DNA of 64,000 bases, from contig DOZJ01000003.1 in the NCBI GenBank assembly GCA_003518055.1, positions 2,046 through 66,045 on the forward strand, written 5' to 3'. Positions within the stretch are counted from its first letter, which is position 1; every line of letters begins with the position of its first letter. The stretch is from Candidatus Falkowbacteria bacterium (GTDB lineage Bacteria; Patescibacteriota; Patescibacteriia; UBA11705). Shown piece by piece: positions 4,067 through 36,768 of the stretch. Below the pieces are notes generated by a model. It saw nothing but the letters and a program-made list of their open reading frames with translations. It was not told the DNA's origin and did no database searches. A program made the position numbers and the translations under genes.

Positions 4067-5500
4067 ATGAAAATATTATTAATTCAGCCGCCCAATCAAT
4101 ACGAGGGACACAGCCGCGGCACCGCTTTCTTCCCAATAGGTCTCGGATATGTAGCCGGAGCGCTGCTCGAAGCTGGCCATGAAGTCCAGATTTTCGATAT
4201 CAATGCGTATGATTATTCTAAAACGGAAGTGCTTAGTCGATTGAATGAATTCCAATTTGACGTGATTGGGATCAGTGCCATGAGCACACAGTACAATTAT
4301 GTAAAATGGCTCGCAGCTGAAATAAAAAAGCAAAGGCCTGATATCAAGATAATTTTAGGCTGGGTTTTGGCCAGCTATAATTATCCGGAGGTTTTGAATC
4401 ACACAGCAGTTGATATCTGCGTTATTGGCGAGGGTGAAAATACCATCAAAGAATTGATGTCCAATTTTGATAACTTGAATATTGTTGACGGTATTGCTTA
4501 TAGAGAAGCCGGTAAAATCACAGTTAATAATAATCGGCGATATATAGAAAATTTAAGCCAAACACCGCGAGTGCCATATGAATTATTTCCTATGGAAATA
4601 TACATTGGGATGATCAATGTGATCGGTGTCAAACAAAAAAAACGGACGATCAATATCAGCACCGGCCGTGGCTGTCCGTTCAACTGTCATTTCTGTTCCA
4701 AATCATTTTCCGGCGTAAGGCTGCGGAGTATTGATGAGGTAATGTCGGAAATTGCCGAATTAAAGCAACAGTATCAAATCGAAGGCGTGTTTTTTACTGA
4801 TGAATGTTTGGTCTTTAGCCGGCCGAGAATTCTTGATTTATGCTCCAAAATTAAACCGCTTAATTTGGTTTGGAGTTGTCAGGGACGGGTAAATTTGGTT
4901 GACAAGGAATTGTTGACTGTAATGAAAGAGGCCGGCTGTCGAGCGGTCGGCTACGGTGTCGAGTCCGGCAGTCAGGAGATCTTGCGGGCCATGAATAAGA
5001 ACACTTTGGTTAAACAGGCGGTCGAAGCGATAAAGATGACCGATGAGGTCGGGCTGGAGCCGATTATTCAAATGATGTTTGGCTACCCGGGTGAAAATGA
5101 AAAAACGTTGCAGGAGACGGTCGATTTCTTTACCGCGATTGACCATCCGGGGACTGAGCTTTGCCCCACGACCCCTTTGCCCGGCACATATCTGTGGCAA
5201 TGGTGCAAGGAAAAGGGCTTGATTACCGATGAGAAAGAAGCATTGGAAAAATTAGAAAGTGGCTATATGCCGGACGCGGTAGATGGGTTTCAGATAAATT
5301 TTACGGATTTTCCGGCGGATAAATTACGAGAGGTAAGGTTAGCGGCTGAGGCGCAAATAAGACGCAATTATATCCGGCGGCACCCAATAAAAAGTACGAT
5401 TATGTTTGTGGATAAGGTATTTCGATTTATCAAGCGATTCGGAATTAAGAAAACCATAAAAAAAATCAGTCAAAAGTTAAAGTTAACGCGAGCTGTCTAG
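4067..5500 (+). CDS. B12-binding domain radical SAM protein
   Basis: N-terminal B12-binding-like domain (MKILLIQPP...) followed by the radical SAM CxxxCxxC motif GRGCPFNCHFCS. 477 aa. Confidence 0.75.
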   Translation: MKILLIQPPNQYEGHSRGTAFFPIGLGYVAGALLEAGHEVQIFDINAYDYSKTEVLSRLNEFQFDVIGISAMSTQYNYVKWLAAEIKKQRPDIKIILGWVLASYNYPEVLNHTAVDICVIGEGENTIKELMSNFDNLNIVDGIAYREAGKITVNNNRRYIENLSQTPRVPYELFPMEIYIGMINVIGVKQKKRTINISTGRGCPFNCHFCSKSFSGVRLRSIDEVMSEIAELKQQYQIEGVFFTDECLVFSRPRILDLCSKIKPLNLVWSCQGRVNLVDKELLTVMKEAGCRAVGYGVESGSQEILRAMNKNTLVKQAVEAIKMTDEVGLEPIIQMMFGYPGENEKTLQETVDFFTAIDHPGTELCPTTPLPGTYLWQWCKEKGLITDEKEALEKLESGYMPDAVDGFQINFTDFPADKLREVRLAAEAQIRRNYIRRHPIKSTIMFVDKVFRFIKRFGIKKTIKKISQKLKLTRAV

Positions 5501-19657: not shown

Positions 19658-19721
19658 TAATTGACAGGTGGTCGTATATTTGTTAAGCTCTTTTGTCCAT
19701 CAACCAAGAGGAGGCGCGGGA

Positions 19722-20201
19722 ATGAAAAGCTCTTTCAAGAAGAGACTGCATATTTTTTTGAGTGAACACACCGACGTTAGGTGCCGGGTTAGAAAAATTT
19801 GGATTATTCATTGCTGTGTTGGAATAATTTGTTTTATTGTCACGGCCGCCCTATTATTGAAACGTTTGGACGAGCCGACGTTTTCAAGCGATGATCCCAA
19901 GGAATTATTTTTGATGGTGATGATGGGTGTTTACGTGGTATACGCGCTTTTGACGTTTATCCTTGCTTTGGTGAGGCGTGAATACACGATTGATCATAAT
20001 CTTGATTTTTCTTTGGTCGATAAGGATGATAATTTTGTTAGCATTAGAAATAATAAGGGACATGAATTGCACATTCCGCGGACGGCGGTGGTTCAAGAGA
20101 ATAATTCTCGATTATCAGAATCATATCTACGGATTTGGTCAGGGGATATTTATGCCAATACTCCGAAGTTATTTATCAAAGACGAGTCGAGTCAAAGGTG
20201 A
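19722..20201 (+). CDS. Hypothetical membrane protein (159 aa)
   Basis: ccaagaggaggcgcgggaATG RBS; two TM segments. Confidence 0.45.
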   Translation: MKSSFKKRLHIFLSEHTDVRCRVRKIWIIHCCVGIICFIVTAALLLKRLDEPTFSSDDPKELFLMVMMGVYVVYALLTFILALVRREYTIDHNLDFSLVDKDDNFVSIRNNKGHELHIPRTAVVQENNSRLSESYLRIWSGDIYANTPKLFIKDESSQR

Positions 20202-21032
20202 TTCTCGATGTGTTTGTTTAAGGATTATGAACCGATGATTGGGTTTATGTAATCACGTTTAATGAGCGTGATTTTTTGTCCTCTATTTTACTCCACTATT
20301 ATTTTACGACACATGATTATTTTAAAGTTAATTTTGAGTGGGAGATGAGTGAAGTTGTGATGAACTAATGAACTAATAATACAAAGAGGGGGAGAAGAGT
20401 ATATTCGAAATAAATAAATTTATCTTTGTTAAATTTAAAATTTAGAATTTTTTTGTGGATAACTCATTTAGACTTTTTATCATTTATTTTGTTGTTGAAT
20501 GTGGTTGTTCTGTACTGATATTAGATAAAATAAGGCTCAAAATCGCGCTATAACGCTTGATTCTCCGCGGTTGATGGTTTGTTACCATAAAATAATAATA
20601 AATATTGATGTATAGTTACGTAATAGCACGTATTTTATAGTTAATTTTGAACGCGACACCCCCCTGATATTTTGGCTAGAATTACAATAAAAATGACCCT
20701 CAAAATTGAGTTGTGTGAGGCGATTCATTTCTTTGTGACTAAGTACATGCGGATAGTATGGAATAAAGTGGAATATAACCATTTGATCGAAAATGAGGTG
20801 TAGTGTCGTAAAAGATATATTTGGCGACACTACATCCGATGTGATTTACTGGCAGCGCGGTGCTGGAATTAGTTGAGCCTCACCGAGTAAATTTGATGAG
20901 GTTGAATGCGGTGCATATGTTTCGTCCCCCATTCTTTCGATTTCAGCGGCGTCTAAAATTTACAGAATTGCAATAGATTATATTTATCAACAGTTCCCCG
21001 TGACGCTATTGGTTATAAGTGTTATAATATAG

Positions 21033-23210
21033 GTGAAAAAAAACAAAAATATGCCAAAAATAAATAGTTCAACTTTACGGAAAAGGAAAAAAATCGCAAT
21101 AGCGTCACTTCTATTGTTTTTTGTAGTTTTTGCGAGCGCAGCTTGGATTTTTTTACCCAATGATCCGGCTGAGGCCGCGGCTACAGATATTTTAATCAGT
21201 GAAGTAAGAGTTTCACCAGCTCAAGTTAGCCCAAATTTACAGCCAAATCCATCATACGAAACATGGACATCATCCAGTCAGCTAGAGCCATGGTATGATA
21301 TGAATGAAGATGAGGTCGCGGATGTTGATGAATATTGTGATTTTGACAGCAGTGGAACCAGAAATTCCTATGATAAGGAAATTTTTTCCGGAGGATCAAT
21401 TACGTTAACCCCGCTCGACAAAGATTGTGGTTCCGTCACTGAGGAAACGACAGATGTTTATCACGGAACGTCTGCGGTAAAGATTGTTACCGGTGATAAT
21501 GAGATTGCGACGGTTAAATTTGCTGACGGCTCAAGAACGGATATTGAAGCTGCCACACAATACACTGTGTCTTTTTATGCCAAAGGAAGTATTGGAAATG
21601 AAAGTATATATTTAAAACTTGATCATTTTGATGTCGGGTTTGTGGAACACACGTGGGATTTTGATCTGGAAACATTTGGTGTTAATGATACAATACCAGC
21701 ATCCAGCTCTATGGTTCGCGAATCTATTTTGACCACATCCTGGACGAGATACTCTTATACATTCACCACTGGTGATGAAGCTGGTTTTTTAGATGTTCAA
21801 ATTATATCAGGAGGAACAGGTATAATGTTTGACGGAAGCGCTGATCAATCAAATCAAACATTTTATATTGATGCTCTTCAGGTTGAGGCTGCAGCGTCGG
21901 CTACCAGTTTTATGTCGGCTGACGTGACAAGCGCGACTTTTTTTGAGCTATATAATCCAACAGCCGCGGCGATTGATCTGAATAATTACAATCTGGAATA
22001 TAAATTTGATGCCAATGAATGGGCTGATTTGGCGGTGGTCTCGGAGGCAACCAGTTTGGCGGCCGGTAAACATTATTTGATTAAGGCGTCCGGTGGTGAT
22101 AAAGTGATCGCAAATGAGGCGACATTTAATAGCGCGTATACCACCAACTCAATCACAATCAGCGGAATGGCGCTTCGTGTGTGTTCGAATTCAGCAGATT
22201 GCGCGTCGACCATCAAGGATACAGTTGGACTCGGTGATGCCACGGTTTACGAAGGTACGGCTATGAGCACCACCGGCTGGAATACAGCGAAAAGTTTTGA
22301 GCGTAAAGCCTACTCAACGTCAACGTCCGTGACCATGGCGTCTGGCGGTGCGGATGAGGTGGCCGGCAACGGCTATGATTCCGAGGTAAACAATAGCGAT
22401 TTTGTGTTATTGACTACCCCTGTCCCCCAAGCGATGGCAGCGACGGCGGAAATTTATGTGGCGCCCGTAACAGGCGGCAGCGCGTCAAGCCAGCGAGCGG
22501 CGCAGGAAAATTATGATATTTTATTAGGATTAGACTTGGATGATTCAGGGGCTGAAGACACGGGAGAGGTCCCTCCTGATGATACTACTATTACTGAGGA
22601 AGAATTATTGATTGAAGAAGATAATGTTGAACCGGATGATCAGACGGATGGATCTGATACTGAGGTGATTGAGGAATCGCCGGAAGAATCATTGATACCC
22701 GAATCACCGGTAGAAAAAAATATTATCATGGAACTTGAGGCCTTGAAGGATTTTATCGCAATTAACGGCGTATTACCAAATGCGGATGATTGGGCCGTAA
22801 TTCATTTTTTGAGCTATGATTCATCCGGATTTGAAGGTGTGTCTCTAAATGATCGAGTCGGGTTGATTGAAGACTATTATGATTTATACGGAAGAATGCC
22901 GAATGACGAGGCTGACTGGGAGGTTGTCTTGTCCATGTCAACCGGTGAGAAAACTGAAGTTAAGATTAATGAATTTGAAATCCGAGCGTTGAAAGAATTT
23001 ATCAGCGTCTATGGCCGGTTGGTTGATTTTAGCGTGCCGCAGGAAGAGCGATTTGTCCACATGGTCGCCTATCATCTGAGGCCGATGGAAAGAAATTTGG
23101 TTTTGGAGAATGCCGCGTTGATAAAATTTGTAACGACATACAATCAGATACCGGATACGCCACTTTTATGGTCAGTACTGAGAGCAATTGCTTATGCCGG
23201 CGTTGAATAA
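21033..23210 (+). CDS. Large N-anchored surface protein with a lamin-tail domain (LTD) and a conserved C-terminal ~160-aa domain
   Basis: Signal-anchor ...IAIASLLLFFVVFASAAWIFL. LTD-like block ...FFELYNPTAAAIDL...KSFERKAYS...NGYDSEVNNSDFVLL. Acidic D/E/T linker. C-terminal domain ending ...LLWSVLRAIAYAGVE, shared with the 2317-aa paralog. Confidence 0.6.
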   Translation: MKKNKNMPKINSSTLRKRKKIAIASLLLFFVVFASAAWIFLPNDPAEAAATDILISEVRVSPAQVSPNLQPNPSYETWTSSSQLEPWYDMNEDEVADVDEYCDFDSSGTRNSYDKEIFSGGSITLTPLDKDCGSVTEETTDVYHGTSAVKIVTGDNEIATVKFADGSRTDIEAATQYTVSFYAKGSIGNESIYLKLDHFDVGFVEHTWDFDLETFGVNDTIPASSSMVRESILTTSWTRYSYTFTTGDEAGFLDVQIISGGTGIMFDGSADQSNQTFYIDALQVEAAASATSFMSADVTSATFFELYNPTAAAIDLNNYNLEYKFDANEWADLAVVSEATSLAAGKHYLIKASGGDKVIANEATFNSAYTTNSITISGMALRVCSNSADCASTIKDTVGLGDATVYEGTAMSTTGWNTAKSFERKAYSTSTSVTMASGGADEVAGNGYDSEVNNSDFVLLTTPVPQAMAATAEIYVAPVTGGSASSQRAAQENYDILLGLDLDDSGAEDTGEVPPDDTTITEEELLIEEDNVEPDDQTDGSDTEVIEESPEESLIPESPVEKNIIMELEALKDFIAINGVLPNADDWAVIHFLSYDSSGFEGVSLNDRVGLIEDYYDLYGRMPNDEADWEVVLSMSTGEKTEVKINEFEIRALKEFISVYGRLVDFSVPQEERFVHMVAYHLRPMERNLVLENAALIKFVTTYNQIPDTPLLWSVLRAIAYAGVE

Positions 23211-23223
23211 AAATTTACAAAAA

Positions 23224-23249
23224 TAAAAAGGGGCTCACTCCCCTTTTTT
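23224..23249 (+). terminator. Rho-independent terminator
   Basis: aaaagggg-ctcact-cccc followed by tttttt. Confidence 0.7.
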
Positions 23250-23304
23250 GATATGTTTATTCGCGTTATTGTCAATTAAACTATATGACAGCAAAGAATA
23301 ATAA

Positions 23305-23530
23305 TTAAACTCGGAAATATTGGCTGGAATATTGGTCTTTTTTTATTTTAGCGATGTTTTTATCCACTTGATGATAAAACGCCGGATAATGCTGCCTGAC
23401 AATCATGCGGCCGCGGTATTTTTGATAATATGGCGGTTTTTGGATGTGGGCAATTTCATGAGCGAGGGTTCTGAGTAAAGAATTGATGCTTTTTGGTTTG
23501 TTAAATATAATTTTTTCGTTTTATTTATCC
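23305..23530 (-). pseudogene. 5-prime-truncated duplicate of the HExxH (DUF45/SprT-like) gene at 31002-31400
   Basis: ~190 bp (23318-23505) is ~95% identical to 31012-31200. It encodes ...SINSLLRTLAHEIAHIQKPPYYQKYRGRMIVRQHYPAFYHQVDKNIAKIKKDQYSSQYFRV* (stop at 23305-23307). The frame closes with TAA immediately upstream and has no ATG. Confidence 0.55.
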
Positions 23531-23693
23531 ACACATTTAGACTGTGATCAATAAAAGTGCTATAATAAATGCATAAACTAATATGGTATATTTTCATAAA
23601 GCTGAACCAGTTAATTGTGACAAAAGATAACCAATCAAAGGGTGTGTGTCACTCTATGATTTTTGTTAAAGATAACAGTTTTTATATAAATAA

Positions 23694-26600
23694 ATGATTC
23701 ATATGAAAAAAACAAACAGGCGATCGCGTTCGAATCATAATTTGTTGATCGCGTTTTTAATGGTTTTTATTCTTGGCACAACAGGGTATCTAACTTTGAT
23801 AAAACCTTTGGCGGTTAAAGCCGGGACATCGCCGCTTCTTATCAGTGAGGTGAAGTTTACGGGTGAAGTTGGCGGGAATTATGTTGAATTGTATAACCGC
23901 TCTGGCAGTGCCCTGTCAACGGAAGAAAATGTAGGCGTTCAATACAAGTTTCCCAGCGGCGAGTGGACTAATTTACACGTGGCATTCAGTAATGAATCAA
24001 TCCCAGCCAGTGGATTTGTTTTGTTTGGAACAGCGGGCGGTGACTTAGCTTTTGCCGATGAGGCCGCGTTTAATACCGCTATGGCCGCGAATAATAATTC
24101 CATTAACGGACTTAGTTTACGTTTGTGCGCTATATTAAGCAGTTGTGTCGATGGTAATTTGCTTGATGTCGTGGGTTTTGGTTCAAGCTCCACCACTGAA
24201 GGAACCGCAATCAGCCTCACAGATTGGGACCCGAGCAAAAGTTTTGAACGTAAGGCGATTTTTGATTCGACGGTTGGCGCTATGATTGCCGGTGGCGAGG
24301 ATGAAACGGCCGGAAATGGTTTTGATTCCGATGATAATAATTGGGATTTTGTGATGCAATCGACGGGCAATCCGCAAAATTTATCCAGCGCGGTTGAATC
24401 TTTGGATAACGCGGTATTTGAAGATGTTGTTCCCTTTATAGATCATGGACAGGTTTTCAGTTATCATGATAATGCGGATTTGTATTTGTTTGCCGCCATC
24501 TATGATGATAGTAATATTGCAACCACAGGAGCAAAAATATTTTATCGTGTCGGGACCAGCGGTGTTTTTACACAGGCTGACTCAACCAAAACCGTTGGGG
24601 CGTATGATCTGACAGGGTCTGCCTGGTATGCTTTTGTTATTCCCCAAGCAAGTTTGCAAAGCGCTGTTTCCGGGGGCGGAGTAGTCCAGTATTATCTTCA
24701 GGTGACCGATGGCGAAAATACAGCAACAATGCCGGATTACAATCCCAGCACCACGCCATTTAATATTGGCGTGACGGATGACTATGCCGGAGTTAAGTCA
24801 TTTTCCGGGGTGATAACCGATAGTCAGTTGAATTTTGTAAGGGCTTTGGTGCTTATAGAGAATTCAGGGTTTTATGCTGTTTCAAGCGCTGAGAATGGGG
24901 CTTACAGTTTCAGCAGTTTGCCAACTTCATATGAACCTGATGGGGCTTATCGGGTGATAATGGTGGCGCCAAATTATAGCTCTGCAATGGTAAGCGGCAT
25001 GAATGGATCTACGACTGTGAACGCGCAACTGCCGTTGTCATATGGGGATTTCGGTGGCGGAGACTTTGTTGGTCCTTATGTCAACTATACCGCTCCGAAC
25101 GCGGAAATGTTTGGAGCCCCGGTGGCGATATGTAATTTAAATACATCCCCGGAATCTCTGCCTGCCGGAGTAAATTTTTGTTCACCTATAATGGTCGGTT
25201 TTTCTGAAGCAATGAATAGCGGTACGGTTAATACGACAAATGTGAAACTGTACAATTTTACGACCAGCGCTTATGTTGACAATTTAGGGATAACAGCTAC
25301 AGCCCAAGATAATGAGTTTCAGGTTTTTTCCACCACTCCCCTGTCCGTCAATACGACATACGCTTTGATTTTAACCACGGATGTTCGAGATCAAGCGGGA
25401 AATGCTTTGGTGGGAAATCGAAGTGACGGTAGTTATGAAATTACTTTTACGACGGGAGGGGCGGCTTTTACCGGTGGTGGTGGTCAAACCTTCGGTTCCG
25501 GTCAGTTCCAGCCACCGTTTGTGCGAACGGTCAGTCCGAATTCAGGATCTTTTAATATCGCCATGAACGCCAATGTGTTGGTTGATTTTACGACGGCCGT
25601 AAACGTTGAAAGCGCCAACTTGGCTCGGGTTAATTTGGTCGATTTGGATTCGTCTGAGGTTGTGAGCTTGACTCGCACCTACAGCAACGATAAAACAAAA
25701 ATTATTTTAAATCCGAATTCAACTTTATCAGCTAATCAAGACTATGAAATTCGAGTTGCGGGCTCTTTTGAAAGTAGTGTCGGAGTGACGTTGGGAGATC
25801 CGCAAAACAGTCAGAATACGGATGACTACGTTTTCTTCCGCTCGTCGTTTACCACCGGTTCAACTTTAGATTCAACCGGACCGAGAGTTTTGGGCACGCT
25901 TCCGGCATCAGCTCAGACTGATGTGGCTGTGGGTTTGGGTTCGATTGAGATTGGCGTAAGCGAATCTCTTGATGCGGCGACAGTTAATACGTCAAATGTC
26001 ACCTTTAAACGAGGGAGCACGAATATTGCCGCCGATATCGAGTACGATGAAGCGTCTAAAACAATTCGATTGTTCCCTTCCAGCGCGTTGACGGCCAATG
26101 CCAGTCATACTGTAGCCGTCAAAACCGATGTGACTGATATCAATGGCAATGCTTTTAACAGTGATAATGACGGTACAAATGGTGAAGTTGATGATATTTA
26201 TACTTTTCAATTCACGACTTCCAGTACAATTGAAACAACCGCTCCGACGGTAACGAATGTCCGGTGCGATGATTATCAGTGTGTCGTGACATACAGTGAA
26301 GCGATGAATCGAGTGACAGTGACAGATACAACCGATTGGGTTGATAGTGTGGGAAAATGGGAAACCAGCGTCTTGAATAGGCTTAATTATAGTATTTCCG
26401 TTGATAAAGGGGCTGGATTGGCTACCGTGGACATAACAGAAGCGACTTTTAAATATGATGGTAATACCAATAGCGTAATTATATCCAATTTAAGGTTATA
26501 TGAAGATGTGGTTGATCTTAACAATCCGGTTCCATTAACTTTGTCGGTTTATAATGCGGCCGGCCCGGCTGATGGCGTGAGAGATATTGTCGGAAATGTC

Positions 26601-29600
26601 ATTGCCGCTTCAATCAGTATTAGCGGTACAGTTGAATCTAGCGCTCAAACCCAAGGTTTCATCGGGCCGGGCGCGACCGGGTTTGGCACGTCAGGCGTGA
26701 GCGATTTTGGAATGCATAGCGCGGCTACCATGGGCGAGAAACCAATTGGAGTTTTTCCGATGAATTCACTGGCCGGTGTAACCTCTCGCTATTTTGTTGA
26801 TTTGCCTGTGACCACGGTTATTCCGAACGGTGGAAAAATTGAATTAACATTCCCCAATGGATTTGATATTACAAATGCGGTGATTGATACCAACAGTCCG
26901 ATGAATAATGATATATCTCGCGGTTCTTCCACCATGACTTTGTCTTGCGTGGGAACTCAAGCAACGAGAACCATTACCTGTACGACTACCGGTGCTTCTG
27001 ATGCCAATGATTATTTATCTTTTGAATTAAAAACTATAATTAATAGTTCTATTCCCAAAGATTTCAACACTTCAGGTTATACGGTTGATGTTAAAACCAA
27101 GTCGGCTGATGGTTTGACTCTGTTGGAATCAATGACGACCATGCCGTTTTTCGTCACCGCGGCCGGATCCAATTCTATCACGGTCAAAGTTTATGCCGGC
27201 GGTCAGCTCGATGCCACCACCGGTACGGATGATATTGATGATGTAACCATGAATTTGTTTGTCGGTTCCCCCATGACCGGTCCCATGGATCAAACGATTA
27301 CTTTTACTAACGGCTATGCGACAACAACGATCAGTAATTTACCCGCCGGCGAATACTTTGTCTTTACCGAGCCATCAATGACAATTGGCGCCAACGAATA
27401 TGTCGGGGTGTCACCGGAGCAATTTTCACTAAATAACAACGTTACCAAGTCATTTTCGTTGAGTAAAATGGATAATTCAACGGCGGCGCCGCTGACAGTC
27501 AAGATTACCGGGGCCTTTGGCGAGACTGAAGATATTGATATTTTCGCCGGTAGTTCCAAGGGCTTTGTGGTCAAAACAATCAGTGATATCGGGACCGTAA
27601 CAAATCAGTCTTATACATTATATTTGCCTTACAACAGCGATTGGAGTATCGGTCTCGGGCCGGCAATGCCGAAAGGCGCAATCAGCGGTCAAGTCGCCAT
27701 GCCCGATTGGATGCCGCCGAAAAATAAAATGGTTCGAGTGACCGGCGTGGGCGAGACAGTCGCTTTGACCAATATGGAAACGCAGGCTGATGTTACCAGT
27801 GCTGGAGTCTCATTTACGGTGGCCTCTGCCGATTATCAAATTAACGGTTCGGTGGTTGACGGCAATGATCAAGGAATCGCTAACGCGGAGCTGTGGGCTT
27901 ACCAACCAATGGGTTTTGGCGGCAGCGGTAATAACACTCGAGCGACAACCGGCGGCAACTTCTCATTGAAGGTAGCGGAGTATGGAACGTACAAAGTAGG
28001 CGCCTTTTTACCTGGTATTCCCCAATCACCGGAATTAACATTGGAGGTAAAAGTTAACACCGGCGCCATTGATGGTAACGCCTCAGCGGATGTTTATCTA
28101 AACGGGACATTGATAACCGCTGGTAGTCCGTTTAAAATAAAATTAAGGAAAGCTGATTACACCATATCGGGTAAAGTGACGGATTCCAGCAACAATCCAA
28201 TGCAATACGCGCCGATTTGGGCCGAGGAATCCACCACGAAACAGACGGTTAACGCCATGACCGATTCCAGCGGAAATTATGTGCTTTATGTCGGTAATGG
28301 TACTTGGGTTGTCAGATCGGCGGTGCCTTTCGGTTCCAATATTTGCGGCAGTCTGACTAAAACGGTGACAATTTCCAGCGCATCCAAATCCGGTCAAAAT
28401 TTGCAACCATCATCAAGCACTTGTTACACTTTGAGCGGAACCGTGACTATTGGCGGATCGGTTGTTACCGGCGCCCCGGTGTTTATCGATGAATGGTCAG
28501 GGACGCTGGCGAGCGGTAATCCAATCGGGGTTTTTAGAGACTCGCGAACAGATTCCGCAGGACAATATTCGACACGAATTTCGAACGGCACATATCGCGT
28601 TGGGACTTGGTCAGAGGATTATGGCGAGCGGGCTATTTTAGTCACGGTTAATGGCCAGGATTCAACGGCAAATCATATCACTGTAGAGGTGGCTGATTTA
28701 AAAACATTGACCGTTAATTTTACCGGTGGCGCCAGCGACATGACTGGTTTCATGGAGGTGCGGAACGCCACAAGCACTGAACGCCGCGGTCGTCCGATCA
28801 ATGATTTATCGAATGCTGAAATTATTCAAGTTAGCGCCGGGACTTATAATGTATTTGTTCATATTGACGGTGTGGGTGACTTTAGCCAAAGCAGCGTTGA
28901 TTTAACCGCTAACGCCGTTATTACATTCAATGTGTCATCAGTGACTCGATTTGGCATTACAGGCACGGTCGAGGATGTTGATGGCAATCCGATCGAAAGC
29001 GCTTGGGTTTGGGTTCATGATCCAAATAGCAATTATAGAACAGGAGCAGCGACCAACTCGTCTGGCGCTTATACTTTGAGTGTAAAGGAAGGTTCAGGGA
29101 TGAAAATCGGTGTTGATAAACCGAATTATGTCTCCCCTGCCCCCAGAACATTAAACGTCACTGAAGCGGCTACGATAGATTTTACCGACGCTGAGAATGC
29201 CGCTTTGACCGCGACGAATTATGTGGTTTCTGGTACGGTGACGGGAACGAATTTGACTGAGGGTTTTGTGTGGGCGGAAACCGCTACGGGTGGTTGGTCA
29301 GGTAGTCCGATTGATTTGGACGGAACCTTTTCATTGCCGGTGACAAACGGAACGTGGACACTCAAAGGTATTGCTCCGCTTCACGCGCAAACGACCTATA
29401 GTGGTTCGATAACGATTAATAATGACAGTGTAACCGGTTTAAGCTTTCCTTTGACGGTTGATGTCACGAAGACAGTCAAAACGGCCATAAATTCGATTAC
29501 TCCTTCTGTCGGTGGTGTCATTCAAGACGATACGGTAGGGGCAAAAGTCGTAGTACCACCGAATGCTTTAGGCAGCGGATCGACGTCAGGAAATATGACA

Positions 29601-30647
29601 ATGCAAAAATCATATACGGCTCCGGCTACTGGCTTATACGCGCCGTTATCAGGTGAGTCAGTCAATATATCAGTTACCGATAACAATGGTCAGCAGATTA
29701 CCAATTTAAACGATGACGTGGAGTTGACTCTAGATTATTTGACTACAAGTTTACCGAGCGGAATTTCCGAAGGCGATTTGATTCCGGCTTATTGGGATAC
29801 TACAACAAATCAATGGATCCCGCTCAGCGGAGTGCAGAATTCGTCAGACAACTCATTTACAGCTCAAACCAATCACTTTACCATTTTTGGTGTGGTTTAT
29901 TCCCCGCTGTCAGTAACGACAGCATCTGGCAGCAGTCGATCCAGCCAGGAGGCGTCACAAGAGCTTGTTGATTCGATAACCGGTGATGGCTCTGGTAGTT
30001 CGACATCGATTCCGGCGACTGAAGAAACGACAGAGCCGGAAACCGCAGAACCGGAGTTAATACCCGATGAGTCAGTAACGGAAACACCTGAGACGTCCGT
30101 GGAAGCTGAAGAAGAGATGGTGAAAACATATACCCCGGATTTACCGGCAGAGCGTGATTTGGATAATGAACGAGACGCCATAAGTCGATATATCAGTTTG
30201 GAGAAAGAATTACCAACTGGTGATGACTGGAAGGTTGTCCAATTCATCAGCTACGGAAGTACGTCTGTGACTGAAGTTTTGACGACTCGGGAGCGTTCTG
30301 GTTTAGTATCTGATTATAAGGATTTGTACGGCCATTTACCGGTGACCGAGACTGATTGGAAGGATATAGATTTGATTGCTCGCGGTGAACAACCGACCCG
30401 GATTTTGACGCTTGAGGCATCAGCTATCAAGGAATTCGTAATGATTTATGGTCGATTGGTCAATTTTCAGACAGCAGCAGATGAGGATTTTATTCATATG
30501 GTGGCTTATCGCTATCGAGTGGAACAACGCGATTTGGCCAGGGAAAATACGGCTTTGGGCATATTTTCTAAGGCTTATGGTCATCTGCCCAATTCAACCC
30601 ACTTTTGGTCGGTATTGAGAGCTATATCCTATGCTAACGTGGAATAA
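23694..30647 (+). CDS. Giant (2317-aa) N-anchored surface protein with an LTD, bacterial Ig-like and carboxypeptidase-regulatory-like repeats, and the same C-terminal domain as 21033-23210
   Basis: Signal-anchor LLIAFLMVFILGTTGYLTLI. LTD LLISEVKFTGEVGGNYVELYNRSG...SFERKAIF...NGFDSDDNNWDFV. Many ~90-aa beta-rich repeats (e.g. ...NTSNVTFKRG...DINGNAF..., ...YTISGKVTDSSNNP...DSSGNYVLYV...). Acidic T/E linker. C-terminus ...FWSVLRAISYANVE. Confidence 0.6.
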   Translation: MIHMKKTNRRSRSNHNLLIAFLMVFILGTTGYLTLIKPLAVKAGTSPLLISEVKFTGEVGGNYVELYNRSGSALSTEENVGVQYKFPSGEWTNLHVAFSNESIPASGFVLFGTAGGDLAFADEAAFNTAMAANNNSINGLSLRLCAILSSCVDGNLLDVVGFGSSSTTEGTAISLTDWDPSKSFERKAIFDSTVGAMIAGGEDETAGNGFDSDDNNWDFVMQSTGNPQNLSSAVESLDNAVFEDVVPFIDHGQVFSYHDNADLYLFAAIYDDSNIATTGAKIFYRVGTSGVFTQADSTKTVGAYDLTGSAWYAFVIPQASLQSAVSGGGVVQYYLQVTDGENTATMPDYNPSTTPFNIGVTDDYAGVKSFSGVITDSQLNFVRALVLIENSGFYAVSSAENGAYSFSSLPTSYEPDGAYRVIMVAPNYSSAMVSGMNGSTTVNAQLPLSYGDFGGGDFVGPYVNYTAPNAEMFGAPVAICNLNTSPESLPAGVNFCSPIMVGFSEAMNSGTVNTTNVKLYNFTTSAYVDNLGITATAQDNEFQVFSTTPLSVNTTYALILTTDVRDQAGNALVGNRSDGSYEITFTTGGAAFTGGGGQTFGSGQFQPPFVRTVSPNSGSFNIAMNANVLVDFTTAVNVESANLARVNLVDLDSSEVVSLTRTYSNDKTKIILNPNSTLSANQDYEIRVAGSFESSVGVTLGDPQNSQNTDDYVFFRSSFTTGSTLDSTGPRVLGTLPASAQTDVAVGLGSIEIGVSESLDAATVNTSNVTFKRGSTNIAADIEYDEASKTIRLFPSSALTANASHTVAVKTDVTDINGNAFNSDNDGTNGEVDDIYTFQFTTSSTIETTAPTVTNVRCDDYQCVVTYSEAMNRVTVTDTTDWVDSVGKWETSVLNRLNYSISVDKGAGLATVDITEATFKYDGNTNSVIISNLRLYEDVVDLNNPVPLTLSVYNAAGPADGVRDIVGNVIAASISISGTVESSAQTQGFIGPGATGFGTSGVSDFGMHSAATMGEKPIGVFPMNSLAGVTSRYFVDLPVTTVIPNGGKIELTFPNGFDITNAVIDTNSPMNNDISRGSSTMTLSCVGTQATRTITCTTTGASDANDYLSFELKTIINSSIPKDFNTSGYTVDVKTKSADGLTLLESMTTMPFFVTAAGSNSITVKVYAGGQLDATTGTDDIDDVTMNLFVGSPMTGPMDQTITFTNGYATTTISNLPAGEYFVFTEPSMTIGANEYVGVSPEQFSLNNNVTKSFSLSKMDNSTAAPLTVKITGAFGETEDIDIFAGSSKGFVVKTISDIGTVTNQSYTLYLPYNSDWSIGLGPAMPKGAISGQVAMPDWMPPKNKMVRVTGVGETVALTNMETQADVTSAGVSFTVASADYQINGSVVDGNDQGIANAELWAYQPMGFGGSGNNTRATTGGNFSLKVAEYGTYKVGAFLPGIPQSPELTLEVKVNTGAIDGNASADVYLNGTLITAGSPFKIKLRKADYTISGKVTDSSNNPMQYAPIWAEESTTKQTVNAMTDSSGNYVLYVGNGTWVVRSAVPFGSNICGSLTKTVTISSASKSGQNLQPSSSTCYTLSGTVTIGGSVVTGAPVFIDEWSGTLASGNPIGVFRDSRTDSAGQYSTRISNGTYRVGTWSEDYGERAILVTVNGQDSTANHITVEVADLKTLTVNFTGGASDMTGFMEVRNATSTERRGRPINDLSNAEIIQVSAGTYNVFVHIDGVGDFSQSSVDLTANAVITFNVSSVTRFGITGTVEDVDGNPIESAWVWVHDPNSNYRTGAATNSSGAYTLSVKEGSGMKIGVDKPNYVSPAPRTLNVTEAATIDFTDAENAALTATNYVVSGTVTGTNLTEGFVWAETATGGWSGSPIDLDGTFSLPVTNGTWTLKGIAPLHAQTTYSGSITINNDSVTGLSFPLTVDVTKTVKTAINSITPSVGGVIQDDTVGAKVVVPPNALGSGSTSGNMTMQKSYTAPATGLYAPLSGESVNISVTDNNGQQITNLNDDVELTLDYLTTSLPSGISEGDLIPAYWDTTTNQWIPLSGVQNSSDNSFTAQTNHFTIFGVVYSPLSVTTASGSSRSSQEASQELVDSITGDGSGSSTSIPATEETTEPETAEPELIPDESVTETPETSVEAEEEMVKTYTPDLPAERDLDNERDAISRYISLEKELPTGDDWKVVQFISYGSTSVTEVLTTRERSGLVSDYKDLYGHLPVTETDWKDIDLIARGEQPTRILTLEASAIKEFVMIYGRLVNFQTAADEDFIHMVAYRYRVEQRDLARENTALGIFSKAYGHLPNSTHFWSVLRAISYANVE

Positions 30648-30710
30648 TTAGATAAGAAAAAAAGGGCTCTTGGCTCTCTTTTTTCTTTGTGGTATACTTT
30701 TTTTAGCTAA

Positions 30711-30986
30711 GTGAGTCGTGATAATCAGTTTATTAAATTTTGTGATGTAAGTATGTCAATTTTAGAAAAAATATTTTCGAGTAAAAAATTGTTTCAGTAT
30801 TTTGTTTTGGTGGTGGTGACCTTGTTTTTGGTCAATTTGATTTTAACGGTAATATTATTGACAAAAGTTACAACGTTAAGAGGCGCCGTTGATACTTACC
30901 AATCAAAGGAATCGCAAATGTTAAATCAAATTTACGGCCGAACGTGGACGATTCAGGGGGCTTTGGAAACGAAGAACAACAATTAG
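30711..30986 (+). CDS. Small membrane protein (91 aa)
   Basis: One TM (FQYFVLVVVTLFLVNLILTVILL). It sits between the giant gene and the HExxH gene. Confidence 0.4.
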   Translation: MSRDNQFIKFCDVSMSILEKIFSSKKLFQYFVLVVVTLFLVNLILTVILLTKVTTLRGAVDTYQSKESQMLNQIYGRTWTIQGALETKNNN

Positions 30987-31001
30987 ATATTAACAGATCC
31001 G

Positions 31002-31400
31002 TCACGAGCGAAAATATTGGCTGAAGTACGGATCTTTTTTTATTTTGATGATGTTTTTATCGACTTGATGATAAAACGCCGGATAATGCTGTCTGACAAT
31101 CATGCGGCCGCGGTATTTTTGATAATATGGCGGTTTTTGGATGTGGGCAATTTCATGAGCGAGGGTTCTGAGTAAAGTATTAATGCTTTTGGGTTTATTG
31201 GTCTTTGGTGTCAGGACATCAAGCGCGATAGTCTTTTTTTGGAAATTGATATACCCCAAAATTAATCTCTTGCCGGTTGCTGATTGACGGCGGCTGATGA
31301 TTCGTAGTTTGTATTCATCATAGCCAAAAAGTTTTCTCACGATTTGGTGAAAAATCAACTCGACAAATTCAAGGTAGCGGTCATTTTTGTAGGCTGGCAT
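31002..31400 (-). CDS. HExxH zinc-metallopeptidase-like protein (DUF45/YgjP/SprT-like), 132 aa
   Basis: ...LRTLAHEIAHIQKPPYYQKYRGRMIVRQHYPAFYHQV... : HExxH followed by an H..(F/Y)(W/Y) segment as in DUF45/M48-like families. Confidence 0.5.
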   Translation of the reverse strand: MPAYKNDRYLEFVELIFHQIVRKLFGYDEYKLRIISRRQSATGKRLILGYINFQKKTIALDVLTPKTNKPKSINTLLRTLAHEIAHIQKPPYYQKYRGRMIVRQHYPAFYHQVDKNIIKIKKDPYFSQYFRS

Positions 31401-31532: not shown

Positions 31533-32756
31533 TTATGGAAGATACAGCAGCGGATCGACTGGGATACCATTGAGACGGACTTCAAAGTGAAGGTGCGGTC
31601 CGGTGGTCAGGTTGCCGGCGCCGGGTGTCCCAGGGGCGCCGCCGCTTAGGCCAATAACTTCACCTTTGGATACATATTCATCCACAGAGACATAAAGGGC
31701 GCTGACGTGGCCGTAGACGGTCGAGAGGCCATTGGCATGGATTAGAGCAATATAGCTGTACCCCATTCCGGCATCTCGGGCTTTGAGTACATAACCATCG
31801 GCAGAGGCTCTGATCGGAGTGGATTGGGCTGCTCGGATATCGATGGCCGGATGTTCAAAAATATGACGAAAGGGATAAGATTTGTCGTGAAAATAGGCGG
31901 TTACCGTATTTTTTGTTACTGGCCAAATTAGAGTGCTGTCTGTCAGGGCCGGTTGTTCGGTGTCAGTGGCGGCGTCAATTTGTTCTCGTTTAAGTTTTTC
32001 GAGATTATAAATTTCGTTATTGGCCGCTTCTTGTTCTTGTTTGGCCTGCCAGAAAAGATCGTAAAATTTTTGTTCTGACTCTTTGGTGTCAAACAGCAGA
32101 TCATCTTTATAATTGACTTCGCCCGCGAATTCCGCTTGCTGAATTTTTAATTCTTGTTTTAAATCGGTTAATTGCGTGTGTTTTTTGTCCATGTCGGATT
32201 TCTGGGTTTCAAGCTCCCCTTTTAGCCGTTTGATGCTATCAAGGGATTTTTGAAGGTTGTTGGATAATATTTTGGTGTTTTCAAGATGAATGAAAAAATC
32301 CGAGAGTGAATTGTTTAGAACAAAAATTTCTAGCGCGCCGGTGTCGTTTTGATAATGAAGGTGTTTCAGCGTTTCGCCTAACTCCCCTTTTTTCTTGTCG
32401 ATTTCATTCTCATGAGTCAAAATCTGCAATTCTGTTTGCCGGATTTCCAACTCGTTTTTTTTGACTTCTTGCTCGGTGGTCTCAATTTCGAGCTTGGTTT
32501 GGGCGATTTTATTGGTCAGAACGTCAATTTGATTTTGCAGGGATACGGCTTCTTCTTGTTTCTGCTGGATGTTTTTTTTGTAGATAGCTTGTTGCTTTTC
32601 CAATTCTTGAATTTTTTCTTGCGTAGATTTGATTTGGCTGTCGAGGTCATCAACGGTTTGAGCTATGATTGGGAGTCTCGGCAAAAGAAAAAATATACTT
32701 ATAACCGATAAGCCGCCAATCCATTTGATAGATTGTTTGAAATAGGATTTCATCAC
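31533..32756 (-). CDS. M23-family peptidase with an N-terminal coiled-coil (EnvC/LytM-like murein hydrolase or activator)
   Basis: Signal/TM, long heptad-rich region (KIQELEKQQAIYKKNIQQKQEE...). C-terminal LytM domain ...HANGLSTVYGHVS...GPHLHFEVRLNGIPVDP. Confidence 0.7.
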   Translation of the reverse strand: MMKSYFKQSIKWIGGLSVISIFFLLPRLPIIAQTVDDLDSQIKSTQEKIQELEKQQAIYKKNIQQKQEEAVSLQNQIDVLTNKIAQTKLEIETTEQEVKKNELEIRQTELQILTHENEIDKKKGELGETLKHLHYQNDTGALEIFVLNNSLSDFFIHLENTKILSNNLQKSLDSIKRLKGELETQKSDMDKKHTQLTDLKQELKIQQAEFAGEVNYKDDLLFDTKESEQKFYDLFWQAKQEQEAANNEIYNLEKLKREQIDAATDTEQPALTDSTLIWPVTKNTVTAYFHDKSYPFRHIFEHPAIDIRAAQSTPIRASADGYVLKARDAGMGYSYIALIHANGLSTVYGHVSALYVSVDEYVSKGEVIGLSGGAPGTPGAGNLTTGPHLHFEVRLNGIPVDPLLYLP

Positions 32757-34370: not shown

Positions 34371-34600
34371 AAAGTTAGATTGTCAGATGTGAATTAGGGT
34401 GTAACTATAACTACGGAAGTTTGGCGGGGTAACTGTAACGGCGGAAGTTTGGCGGGGTAACTGTAACTACGGAAGTTAGGCGGGTGTAACTGTAACTACG
34501 GAAGTAACTATAACTACGGAAGTTAGGCGGGGGTAACTGTAACTACGGAAGTAACTGTAACTACGGAAGTTAGGCGGGGTAAGTTAAGGTTTATTTAAGT
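34371..34600. repeat. Tandem array of seven or more directly abutting ~28-nt units, (G)GGTAACTGTAACTACGGAAGTT(T/A)GGCGG
   Basis: ggtgtaactataactacggaagtttggcgg / ggtaactgtaacggcggaagtttggcgg / ggtaactgtaactacggaagttaggcgg / gtgtaactgtaactacggaagtaactataactacggaagttaggcgg / gggtaactgtaactacggaagtaactgtaactacggaagttaggcgg. There are no unique spacers. Confidence 0.8.
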
Positions 34601-34976
34601 TTGGATTTATTATACGATAAATGTTAACATTTTTTTGATTAAAGTGAACTAATAAACCAAGTTTTATTCCCGACAATTTTAAATATTCTTTGACTTGATA
34701 AAAATGCTTTTGGGAAATTAGGGATGAGGCTTTAATTTCTATAATAATACAATCTTCAATCAGAAAGTCAATCTTACGATAAGTAATCTCACGACCGTAT
34801 AATTGAAGTGGAATTTTGGATTCTTTTACGTAATTTATTGTTTTTTGTTTGAGTAGTGATTCAAGTAGTTGACAATATGATGCTTCCCTGAGACCGTAAC
34901 CGAGTTGTTTGTATATTTGATAAAATAGTCCGTTCAAGACATATGAAAGATCCTCAAAATAAAAATGAGTCTGCAT
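34584..34976 (-). CDS. GxxExxY-family protein
   Basis: ...YKQLGYGLREASYCQLLE... (G-x-x-E-x-x-Y) and ...LKLSGIKLGLLVHFN... match the GxxExxY family signature. Confidence 0.6.
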   Translation of the reverse strand: MQTHFYFEDLSYVLNGLFYQIYKQLGYGLREASYCQLLESLLKQKTINYVKESKIPLQLYGREITYRKIDFLIEDCIIIEIKASSLISQKHFYQVKEYLKLSGIKLGLLVHFNQKNVNIYRIINPNLNKP

Positions 34977-35324: not shown

Positions 35325-35682
35325 GTTAAGCATGAACTTTGATATAACCATAACTACCAGACTACGCTGAAGCTACGTCTGGCACAGCGAAAGTTTAGCA
35401 GCAGCAAGAAGGCAGCAACTATTATTGAATTTGAGTTTGTGTCAACCTGAACTTGTTTCAGGTTCTACAAAATCAGATTCAATGATGGTTGTGAGATGTC
35501 TCCAACCTGTCCGGTGTAAATGGTCAAGACCAAAGAACTTCTTAAGCTTCACTCTGGTCCCCACATATCAAAACCGGGACCTATGAGCCGATTAGCGGCT
35601 GACAAAAGTGAAGTCGAAGATCAGCGGTCAAGACCAACCAAATCGTTTTTGGGGCACAGCCCCGCTTCATGGAGGAATCCAG

Positions 35683-36768
35683 ATGACCGAGCAGAGCACC
35701 CGCATCTCCACCCTCGTCGACTACGTCAACAACCACGGCACGTCGATCCGGCCCAACGTCATGGTCGAGTCCGATCTCGTCACCGGGCGCCCCTTCCCCG
35801 CGCGTTTCGCGCGGGTGCTGGTGGCGACCCAGCAGCTGTTCAACAACATCGACGTGAAGATGCTGCAGGAGCAGATTTTCAGGCTCAACGGCGAGCAGCG
35901 CGACGCCGGCAAGCCGATGCTCGACGGCAGCCACATCACGCTCAGCGAGGCGCTCGCGAACGCCGCGGCGGTCATCAAGTACCGCGACGCCATCGACCCG
36001 CTCCTGATCAACCGCGACGCGCGACTCACCGGCTTCCAGGTGTCCGAGCTGTCGCTCGACCCGACGGAGCTGGAGAAGCACCTCGCGGCAGGCGCCGGCA
36101 CGATCGACATGACCCGTGTCGCGGCCTGGTCCAAGAAGCAGAGCCTCTACGAGGCCGCGCTCGCGGCCCGCGCGGCGATCTTCGACGACCTGCGCAGCCG
36201 CGACGTCACCCCCGAGGAGCCCAACGGCTGGAGCCTGGCCCAGTGCCAGACGTCCGACTTCTGGGCGGCCTACGAGGAGGCGATCAAGGCCTTCGCGGTC
36301 GAGGTCGGCTTCGAGTGGGACGGCACGCCGACCACGCCGACTCCGCCGGTCTACCCCGTCACGGTCGTCCGCGTGTTCCACCGGGACGACATGTCGACCG
36401 GCTTCCGGTACATCCCCATGGTGGCGGACGGTCGGCACAAGGCGGCCGTGCAGATCCTCTGGGAGCAGCACGTCGAGTGGTCCCAGGAGCGCCAGAAGCC
36501 GCCGACGTTCTACCGCCGGTTCGTGTCGGAGGTCTGCGTCCCCCTGAACCTGCTGCAGGACATGCTCCGCAGCGAGGGCGTCAAGGACGACCGGCCGACG
36601 GTCGAGGCGAAGGTCTCGAGCCTCGCCGCGTCCCTGTCCGCCATTAGGGACAACCGGAACGCCGAGTACGAGGGCGGCCGGCGCAACCGCGACGAGGACA
36701 ACGACCGCCGCGGCAGCCGGGGCAAGCGCGGCAACACCCGCCAGAACCACCCCTACTCCCGCGGCTGA
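35683..36768 (+). CDS. Hypothetical 361-aa protein encoded at ~66% GC (GC3 >90%); probable foreign (horizontally acquired) gene
   Basis: GGAGG (35671-35675) then ATG at 35683. Codons are almost all G/C-ending (gtc gag tcc gat ctc gtc acc ggg cgc ccc...). C-terminal R/G/D/N-rich tail ...GGRRNRDEDNDRRGSRGKRGNTRQNHPYSRG. Overlapping ORFs on other frames and the other strand (35520-36647, 35581-36840 etc.) are high-GC artefacts. Confidence 0.6.
   Translation: MTEQSTRISTLVDYVNNHGTSIRPNVMVESDLVTGRPFPARFARVLVATQQLFNNIDVKMLQEQIFRLNGEQRDAGKPMLDGSHITLSEALANAAAVIKYRDAIDPLLINRDARLTGFQVSELSLDPTELEKHLAAGAGTIDMTRVAAWSKKQSLYEAALAARAAIFDDLRSRDVTPEEPNGWSLAQCQTSDFWAAYEEAIKAFAVEVGFEWDGTPTTPTPPVYPVTVVRVFHRDDMSTGFRYIPMVADGRHKAAVQILWEQHVEWSQERQKPPTFYRRFVSEVCVPLNLLQDMLRSEGVKDDRPTVEAKVSSLAASLSAIRDNRNAEYEGGRRNRDEDNDRRGSRGKRGNTRQNHPYSRG

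Follow-up and report, generated by a model that had tools for sequence, protein, structure and literature searches.

Bacteria of the candidate phyla radiation (CPR), or Patescibacteria, live attached to other cells, yet very little of their surface biology has been characterised. A 64,000-nucleotide stretch of a Candidatus Falkowbacteria genome (contig DOZJ01000003.1, positions 2,046 to 66,045; hereafter the window) carries two consecutive genes for very large secreted proteins, giants 1 and 2, both ending in the same C-terminal domain and each followed on the opposite strand by a sequence encoding an HExxH motif. What does such a domain do on these giants, and does the HExxH gene belong to them? 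A sequence-only reading of the locus had proposed that giant gene, small membrane open reading frame (ORF) and inverted HExxH gene were duplicated as one unit, that the HExxH product serves the giants as a dedicated peptidase, and that the C-terminal domain could be a host- or partner-binding module, or one for sorting or attachment. Here we establish the paralogy of the giants, the limits and repeat structure of their C-terminal domain, its position and the size of its family, together with the synteny of the HExxH gene and the nature of the pseudogene between the giants. The domain is a previously unannotated helical repeat family of Patescibacteria surface proteins.

Two paralogous giants

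Giant 1 lies at 21033-23210 (725 aa; HCC23227.1, Candidatus Falkowbacteria) and giant 2 at 23694-30647 (2317 aa), both on the forward strand, as defined by ORF, BLASTP and profile searches and as first read from the sequence. They are true paralogues with a common alignable C-terminal domain. In BLASTP comparison the lamin tail domain (LTD) block aligns at 42% identity over 173 residues (E=2e-35), and the C-terminal ~255 residues, which comprise linker and C-terminal domain, align at 38% identity (E=2e-43), well above chance; the C-terminal domains alone are 42% identical as protein. Both paralogues have orthologues in the closest relative of the window (locus L002; related loci are cited by our own labels), where giant 2 has 60% overall identity with a protein of 2547 aa and giant 1 48% with its counterpart, and therefore the two giants predate the split of these lineages.

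Giant 1 begins with a predicted signal peptide (residues 1-48), the first LTD strand (~53-62), a jelly-roll (~125-300) and the remainder of the LTD (~299-473), and closes with an acidic linker (~474-555) and the C-terminal domain (residues 556-725; 22698-23207, + strand, HMM E=3e-57). Giant 2 consists of a predicted signal peptide (1-43), the LTD (~44-235) and a long beta array of Big_5 and CarboxypepD_reg repeats, followed by an acidic linker (~2072-2147) and the C-terminal domain (residues 2148-2317; 30135-30644, + strand, HMM E=2e-61, with an AlphaFold2 model). The linker before the domain is of the D/E/T/P type in both giants, in agreement with the earlier description. The LTD block is likewise shared, but its assignment to Pfam PF00932 (109-position profile, cut-off 34.3 bits) stays below the cut-off in both, at 32.8 bits over positions 22-91 in giant 1 and 24.9 bits over positions 4-107 in giant 2, even though nearly the whole profile is covered.

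Ig-like and carboxypeptidase-regulatory repeats had been ascribed to each giant. They are present in giant 2, where CarboxypepD_reg (PF13620) scores 102.2 bits against a cut-off of 32.3 (E=2e-29) in at least three stretches and Big_5 (PF13205) 89.5 bits against 23.6 (E=2.9e-25) in three, but the Pfam search of giant 1 gave neither. Residues 125-300 of giant 1 instead match CBM_4_9 (PF02018, 27.1 bits, cut-off 25.9) and NCBIfam GTA_spike_fiber (NF048003, 45.3 bits, cut-off 36), both pointing to the jelly-roll. It is enclosed by the strand 'ILISEV' (residues 53-59) and the motif 'FFELYN' (303-308), and since these two are nearly adjacent in giant 2, ~10 residues apart, the jelly-roll appears to be an insertion after the first LTD strand of giant 1. 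This would be a nested-domain arrangement, in which an insertion of ~240 residues (window 21189-21932) splits the LTD, and it also seems to hold for the giant 1 orthologues of 704-717 aa (L002/L013 and L004).

Both giants start with a basic stretch, a hydrophobic stretch of ~20 residues (Kyte-Doolittle (KD) hydropathy 2.55 in giant 1 and 2.2 in giant 2) and an AxA-type signal-peptidase motif, AEA|A at 46-48 and VKA|G at 41-43, respectively, as read from the sequence. The hydrophobic segments of the supposed signal-anchors are thus present, but anchoring is not established; as the AxA motifs fit the -3/-1 rule, the N-termini are probably cleavable signal peptides and not anchors.

A helical repeat family at the C-terminus of Patescibacteria surface proteins

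The C-terminal domain of ~165 aa is composed of four homologous helix-hairpin units of ~40 aa with the pattern E..A...F...YG.LP....W..V..IAY. Unit-against-unit alignments score above those of shuffled sequences (z-scores 3-7), and profile-profile comparison of the four units by hhalign gives probabilities of 87-98% with E values from 4e-6 to 5e-14. An AlphaFold2 model based on a 26-sequence alignment is compact and all-helical with eight main helices, at a pLDDT of 96.6 (72 in an earlier model from 3 sequences) and a pTM of 0.88, so that the structure prediction suggested at the outset yields a confident fold.

The domain has no match in Pfam (2025 copy), NCBIfam (2026) or PDB sequences, and a profile search of the latter gave nothing below E=0.25. 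SLH, PG_binding_1, SH3b, LysM and DUF4214 were all missing from the Pfam matches of the 26 domain sequences at E<=1; DUF4214 proteins appeared only at Foldseek E values of 4.6-8.8 in BFVD when the domain model was compared. Literature searches brought up neither this domain nor LTD giants in Patescibacteria. Of known families, only the pseudomurein-binding repeat (PMBR, PF09373) gives a weak but recurrent signal, with 2 of the 26 members matching below the cut-off; giant 1 reaches 20.2 bits (cut-off 24.9, E=5.9e-4) over a single stretch of 13 aligned residues, and giant 2 has no match, so membership in PF09373 is not supported. Pseudomurein-binding (PMB) motifs bind the cell wall (PMC3466432, PMC2989375). 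PMB/PMBR modules, found in Methanobacteriales surface proteins and in PeiW/PeiP, resemble the units described here in being short repeats in which a '(G)xLP' turn comes after a helix, a resemblance that we take as an analogy only.

How widespread is the domain? Following the earlier suggestion to look for it in other Patescibacteria proteins, we searched 1.84 billion cluster representatives exhaustively with HMMER and obtained 1182 proteins at E<=1e-3, of which 978 reach E<=1e-10. A word-indexed homology search with the domain alone and with a 5-sequence profile had returned a single fragment of 107 aa, which reflects the limit of that method and not rarity, and a pattern scan of GTDB, with its narrow peptide patterns, found close relatives in two Falkowbacteria genomes only. 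Among the best 149 of the 1182 matches, 146 have at most 5 residues between the end of the domain and the protein C-terminus, carrier length runs from 120 to 3508 aa with a median of 549, and the number of units varies from 2 to ~8, some carriers having an extra half-domain. An N-terminal hydrophobic segment is seen in 97 of 120 full-length carriers. The passengers are diverse and include fn3, CHB_HEX_C_1, Fn3_assoc, Cohesin, Ig-like, LTD, polysaccharide deacetylase, alpha-alpha toroid and Dockerin; PG_binding_1 also occurs in two carriers and SH3_3 in one. The few carriers with an organism name all belong to Patescibacteria or Parcubacteria, and all are labelled 'hypothetical'. The C-terminal domain is a real, recurrent and Patescibacteria-wide module of surface proteins. 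That such giants should end in a conserved domain had been thought unusual; it is in fact the usual arrangement of secreted giants in Gram-positive bacteria.

At four further carrier loci (L014, L015, L018 and L019) no conserved neighbour gene was seen. In three of them (L014 6172-7719, L015 6265-7806 and L018 2937-6703) carriers of ~460-600 aa are divergent from adjoining PMT/PMT_2-type genes, and these carriers also lie near glycosyltransferase, sulfotransferase and ABC-2 clusters; this gene content hints that some carriers may be glycoproteins or linked to envelope glycan synthesis. A PMT-type gene (protein O-mannosyltransferase-like) was considered as a general partner of the carriers and rejected, as the three loci are probably one orthologous context that is absent at L019; it stays a lead only.

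The HExxH gene and its M23 partner

The intact HExxH gene (31002-31400, - strand, 132 aa) was correctly recognised from the sequence, and its product is 100% identical to hypothetical protein DF272_03565 from a metagenome-assembled genome of Candidatus Falkowbacteria. By profile searches and synteny it is the last gene of a GluRS-M23-HExxH run, in which its upstream partner is a coiled-coil M23 peptidase gene (31533-32756, - strand; Peptidase_M23 E=1.3e-23). We found 35 homologues of ~130 aa, all in Falkowbacteria or other Patescibacteria, with the invariant core AHEIAH-QKPPY...R-HYP-FY and an invariant HExxH motif. The protein of the window has no hydrophobic segment or signal peptide and a pI of 10.2, on which grounds it is probably cytoplasmic.

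It had been labelled DUF45/SprT-like. The first part of this label finds no match, since none of the 35 members hits DUF45/YgjP-like (PF01863) at E<=1, and the second is reached by weak matches below the cut-offs: sub-threshold Pfam hits are to SprT-like in 23 of the 35, to WLM in 9 and to M48 in 6, and the window protein scores 15.1 bits against SprT-like (PF10263; E=0.021, cut-off 25.6), the best homologue having E=0.0022. With SprT-like and WLM zincins (PF10263, PF08325) the 132-aa protein shares its small size, its basic character and an HExxH motif with a conserved downstream His; it differs from them in that every score is sub-cut-off and that no relative was found among PDB sequences. 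It is probably a small and distant SprT-like/WLM-like zincin. SprT is, to our knowledge, not known for a constant placement after an M23 peptidase gene.

This position is the constant feature of the gene. We read the gene neighbourhood in seven lineages (the window, L001-3, L004/5, L006/7, L008, L009 and L010), and the HExxH gene lies directly downstream of the M23 peptidase gene on the same strand in all seven, usually with a gap of 30-130 nt, a small ORF intervening twice. The two genes are separated in the closest relative by an ORF of 164 aa that has no Pfam matches (L001 1056-1550, - strand; L002 9501-9995); the window lacks this ORF and has a gap of 132 nt in its place.

The giants do not follow this pattern. 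In the closest relative (L001-3; HExxH 76% identical) both are present, at 704 and 2547 aa, followed by a membrane ORF of 77 aa, and L004/5 (HExxH 64% identical) has only a giant-1-type gene of 717 aa, with an intact, convergent HExxH gene 66 nt after it. In the remaining four lineages, HMM search of six-frame translations detected no C-terminal domain carrier up to 10 kb from the HExxH gene, and the carriers at L014, L015, L018 and L019 have neither an HExxH nor an M23 neighbour. HExxH gene and carrier therefore co-occur in the window, L001-3 and L004/5 only, and lack of co-occurrence in other genomes is what the sequence-only reading itself had named as refuting its proposal. Given that the HExxH gene always follows M23, that giants are missing in four of the seven lineages and that carriers occur elsewhere without it, the HExxH gene is a partner of the M23 gene and not the dedicated peptidase that had been proposed for the giants, which it adjoins by local gene order; the lack of an export signal points the same way. 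Work on this gene is better coupled to the M23 (EnvC/PcsB-like) cell-wall hydrolase than to adhesins.

The HExxH fragment and the history of the locus

Between the giants lies the 3' half of a second HExxH copy (23308-23502, - strand; 92% nucleotide identity to 31005-31199), noticed already in the sequence-only reading; the underlying direct repeat is 191 nt long (23312-23502 against 31009-31199, 92% identical). The fragment encodes the last 64 HExxH residues and the stop codon, retains HEIAH and covers HMM positions 64-127 of the family (E=1e-34), and it has a stop codon upstream and no start codon. Compared with the intact gene there are 14 codon differences, 9 synonymous and 5 nonsynonymous, while codons 8-34 are identical. 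The fragment is a pseudogene, a non-coding remnant of an HExxH gene.

In favour of a cassette of giant, small membrane ORF and inverted HExxH gene duplicated as a unit, a tandem duplication ending within the HExxH gene would give just the present layout, and the fragment is indeed convergent and lies ~100 nt past the giant 1 stop, much like the intact gene after the 717-aa giant of L004. The other members of the proposed unit behave differently. The small single-pass membrane protein (30711-30986, + strand; hydrophobic segment KD 3.1), whose likely start is the ATG at 30753, giving 77 aa, is kept in L001/L002, is found after giant-2 orthologues only, and has no counterpart after giant 1 by sequence comparison within the window. 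The fragment is 92% identical to the window HExxH gene and 78% to that of L002, and the 202-nt region between the two giants of L002 contains no HExxH fragment. From the 92% DNA identity, the absence in this two-giant relative and the 42% protein identity of the giant C-terminal domains, the fragment is far younger than the duplication of the giants, or gene-converted, and however it first arose a recent recombination event is required; duplication of the cassette as a unit does not agree with these ages.

Two origins of the fragment can be considered. It could be a recent ectopic copy, in keeping with its absence in L002 and with the dissimilar regions upstream of giants 1 and 2, which show no similarity to each other in blastn at word size 7; a tandem duplication would predict some. 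Alternatively, it could be the relic of an old tandem duplication with its breakpoint within the HExxH gene, kept similar by gene conversion and lost in L002, a scenario that is in line with a fragment position mimicking the L004 arrangement.

Proposed function of the C-terminal domain

Several well-known modules retain proteins on the envelope, among them SLH, SH3b, LysM, choline-binding and pseudomurein-binding repeats. SLH modules, known from Gram-positive S-layer proteins and exoenzymes, are terminal tandem short helical repeats joined by a linker to many unrelated extracellular passengers, and they attach non-covalently to the envelope. The domain described here shares with them the terminal helical repeat module, the linker, the unrelated passengers and the presence of the same module on several paralogues in one genome; it differs in having four units of ~40 aa in place of three of ~55 aa, in the lack of a Pfam SLH match in the 26 members, and in its occurrence in Patescibacteria. 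In Apilactobacillus kunkeei, five tandem giants (Giant1-5) all carry an SH3b-like domain at the C-terminus, for which wall binding has been proposed (PMC12863079). The likeness lies in consecutive, very large secreted paralogues whose N-terminal and stalk parts vary while the C-terminal domain is common to all, and the difference in an SH3b-like beta fold as against the all-helical four-repeat fold, in the phylum, and in there being two genes here, of 725 and 2317 aa.

The strict C-terminal position, the flexible linker, the variable repeat number, the unrelated passengers and the conservation across the radiation together suggest an envelope-retention module, and because the domain is conserved across lineages with presumably different hosts, a ligand on the cell itself is favoured. 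The basic character of most of the family (median domain pI 9.1) also speaks for this reading. In this model, each giant would be exported by means of its N-terminal Sec signal peptide, which would then be cleaved; the C-terminal domain would hold the protein non-covalently on the envelope of the cell that made it, on peptidoglycan, a wall glycopolymer or an S-layer; and the LTD, CBM and Ig-like parts would face outward as the ligand-binding end. That the domain retains the giants on their own envelope we rate at about an even chance, and the binding, the orientation and the cleavage of the signal peptide are inferred. The more far-reaching proposal, that it is an undescribed, Patescibacteria-specific anchoring module with a fold that has no PDB representative, implying a conserved envelope ligand peculiar to this radiation, is put forward tentatively, as a conjecture somewhat more likely to fail than to hold. 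Of the options named in the sequence-only reading, attachment is in any case the best supported, and a binding tip or a sorting signal less so.

Several points weigh against envelope retention. The domain is acidic in the giants and their nearest relatives (pI 4.5-6), compared with a family median of 9.1; the ~20-residue N-terminal hydrophobic segment might be a retained membrane anchor, which would place the C-terminal domain distally; the domain was not found in IMG/VR or GenBank phages, which gives no support of the endolysin type; no fold or sequence link to a known binding domain was found; and organism names exist for few carriers only.

A dockerin-like module, docking onto a common protein scaffold such as an S-layer lattice, a pilus or a membrane receptor and not onto a wall polymer, would show the same position and promiscuity as an anchor. 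Cohesin domains in several carriers and Dockerin in one fit this alternative, the acidic versions in the present clade suit binding to wall polyanions poorly, and helical repeats such as those of the model are a common protein-binding architecture. No candidate partner was identified, however, and carrier loci have no conserved neighbour gene, while the few carriers in which the domain is paired with PG_binding_1 or SH3_3 are compatible with anchor and docking alike; we regard docking as unlikely, at perhaps one chance among five. The long N-terminal hydrophobic segments would also suit N-anchored giants that carry the domain as a distal host- or partner-binding tip, served by a dedicated peptidase and duplicated as the cassette discussed above. 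Its peptidase link is largely refuted by the synteny, and persistence of the domain in more than 1000 clusters with unrelated passengers is unlike a host-specific tip, which together with the ages of fragment and giants leaves this proposal improbable. Least probable of all, though by a little, is a sorting, export or maturation domain recognised, and perhaps removed, by Patescibacteria-specific machinery in the style of the T9SS C-terminal domain: its position on unrelated passengers would suit such a role, but the carriers already have Sec-type N-termini, 2 to ~8 units with partial extra copies are typical of avidity-based binding repeats and not of a recognition tag, and no conserved machinery gene adjoins the carriers.

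If envelope retention holds, the anchoring module would be a marker of the proteins that CPR bacteria display on their surface. A single domain profile would allow simple listing of the surface-displayed proteins in any CPR genome, with over 1000 secreted clusters already at hand, and the domain would serve as a tag for display or localisation experiments and would point to a conserved envelope component.

Gene context and other features of the window

Across lineages the giants are variably present between FtsQ and the GluRS-M23-HExxH run, and the locus is therefore called a variable surface-protein slot, bounded by an Ala-racemase/FtsQ block and the GluRS-M23-HExxH block, both of which are conserved. 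After giant 1, a terminator-like hairpin with a T-run (23225-23248) is readable from both strands. The intergenic region upstream of giant 1 (20202-21032) is AT-rich as had been noted, with a GC fraction of 0.344 in a window of ~42% (42.5%) GC overall. Within it lies a clade-conserved element of 28 nt, GTGTCGTAAAAGATATATTTGGCGACAC (20803-20830, + strand), recognised by sequence comparison with relatives, whose conserved, AT-rich centre is flanked by the arms of a 6-bp inverted repeat. The element is identical at 29-30 of 30 nt upstream of giant-1 orthologues in L013/L017 and L012/L004, where the flanks have diverged, and is matched as closely in L008 (10608-10636), where the slot has no giant; its role may be that of an operator or a small RNA. 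The region 20150-21100 gave no Rfam match for a structured RNA at E<=1, and tRNA and Rfam searches had no match anywhere in the window.

The DnaA-box 9-mer TTATCCACA occurs in five perfect copies in the window against 0.69 expected, at 20454-20462 (-) and 23525-23533 (+), and at 5407, 56426 and 59592. One copy thus lies in the intergenic region upstream of each giant, and the inter-giant spacer of L002 has one too, so that the 9-mer may be a shared promoter-region motif. The AT-rich region was considered as an oriC and rejected, as the five copies are unclustered and GC skew is positive throughout the window, without a switch.

Upstream of this region, after FtsQ, is a membrane ORF of 177 aa (19668-20201, + strand) with a GTG start and a weak DUF7378 match; no counterpart is called in L004 or L017, and the ORF may be lineage-specific or spurious. 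Beyond the M23 gene, a gene of the PD-(D/E)XK nuclease family (34584-34976, - strand; PDDEXK_3 E=6e-26) adjoins an ORF of 386 aa (35608-36768, + strand) with 68% GC, against 42.5% for the window, and with long overlapping ORFs on both strands. The 386-aa ORF matches no Pfam family and is conserved at the protein level with L002 only (39% identity, E=8e-70). Its syntenic genes in four related genomes have 63-67% GC in loci of 37-41% GC, and the ORF is a conserved compositional anomaly.

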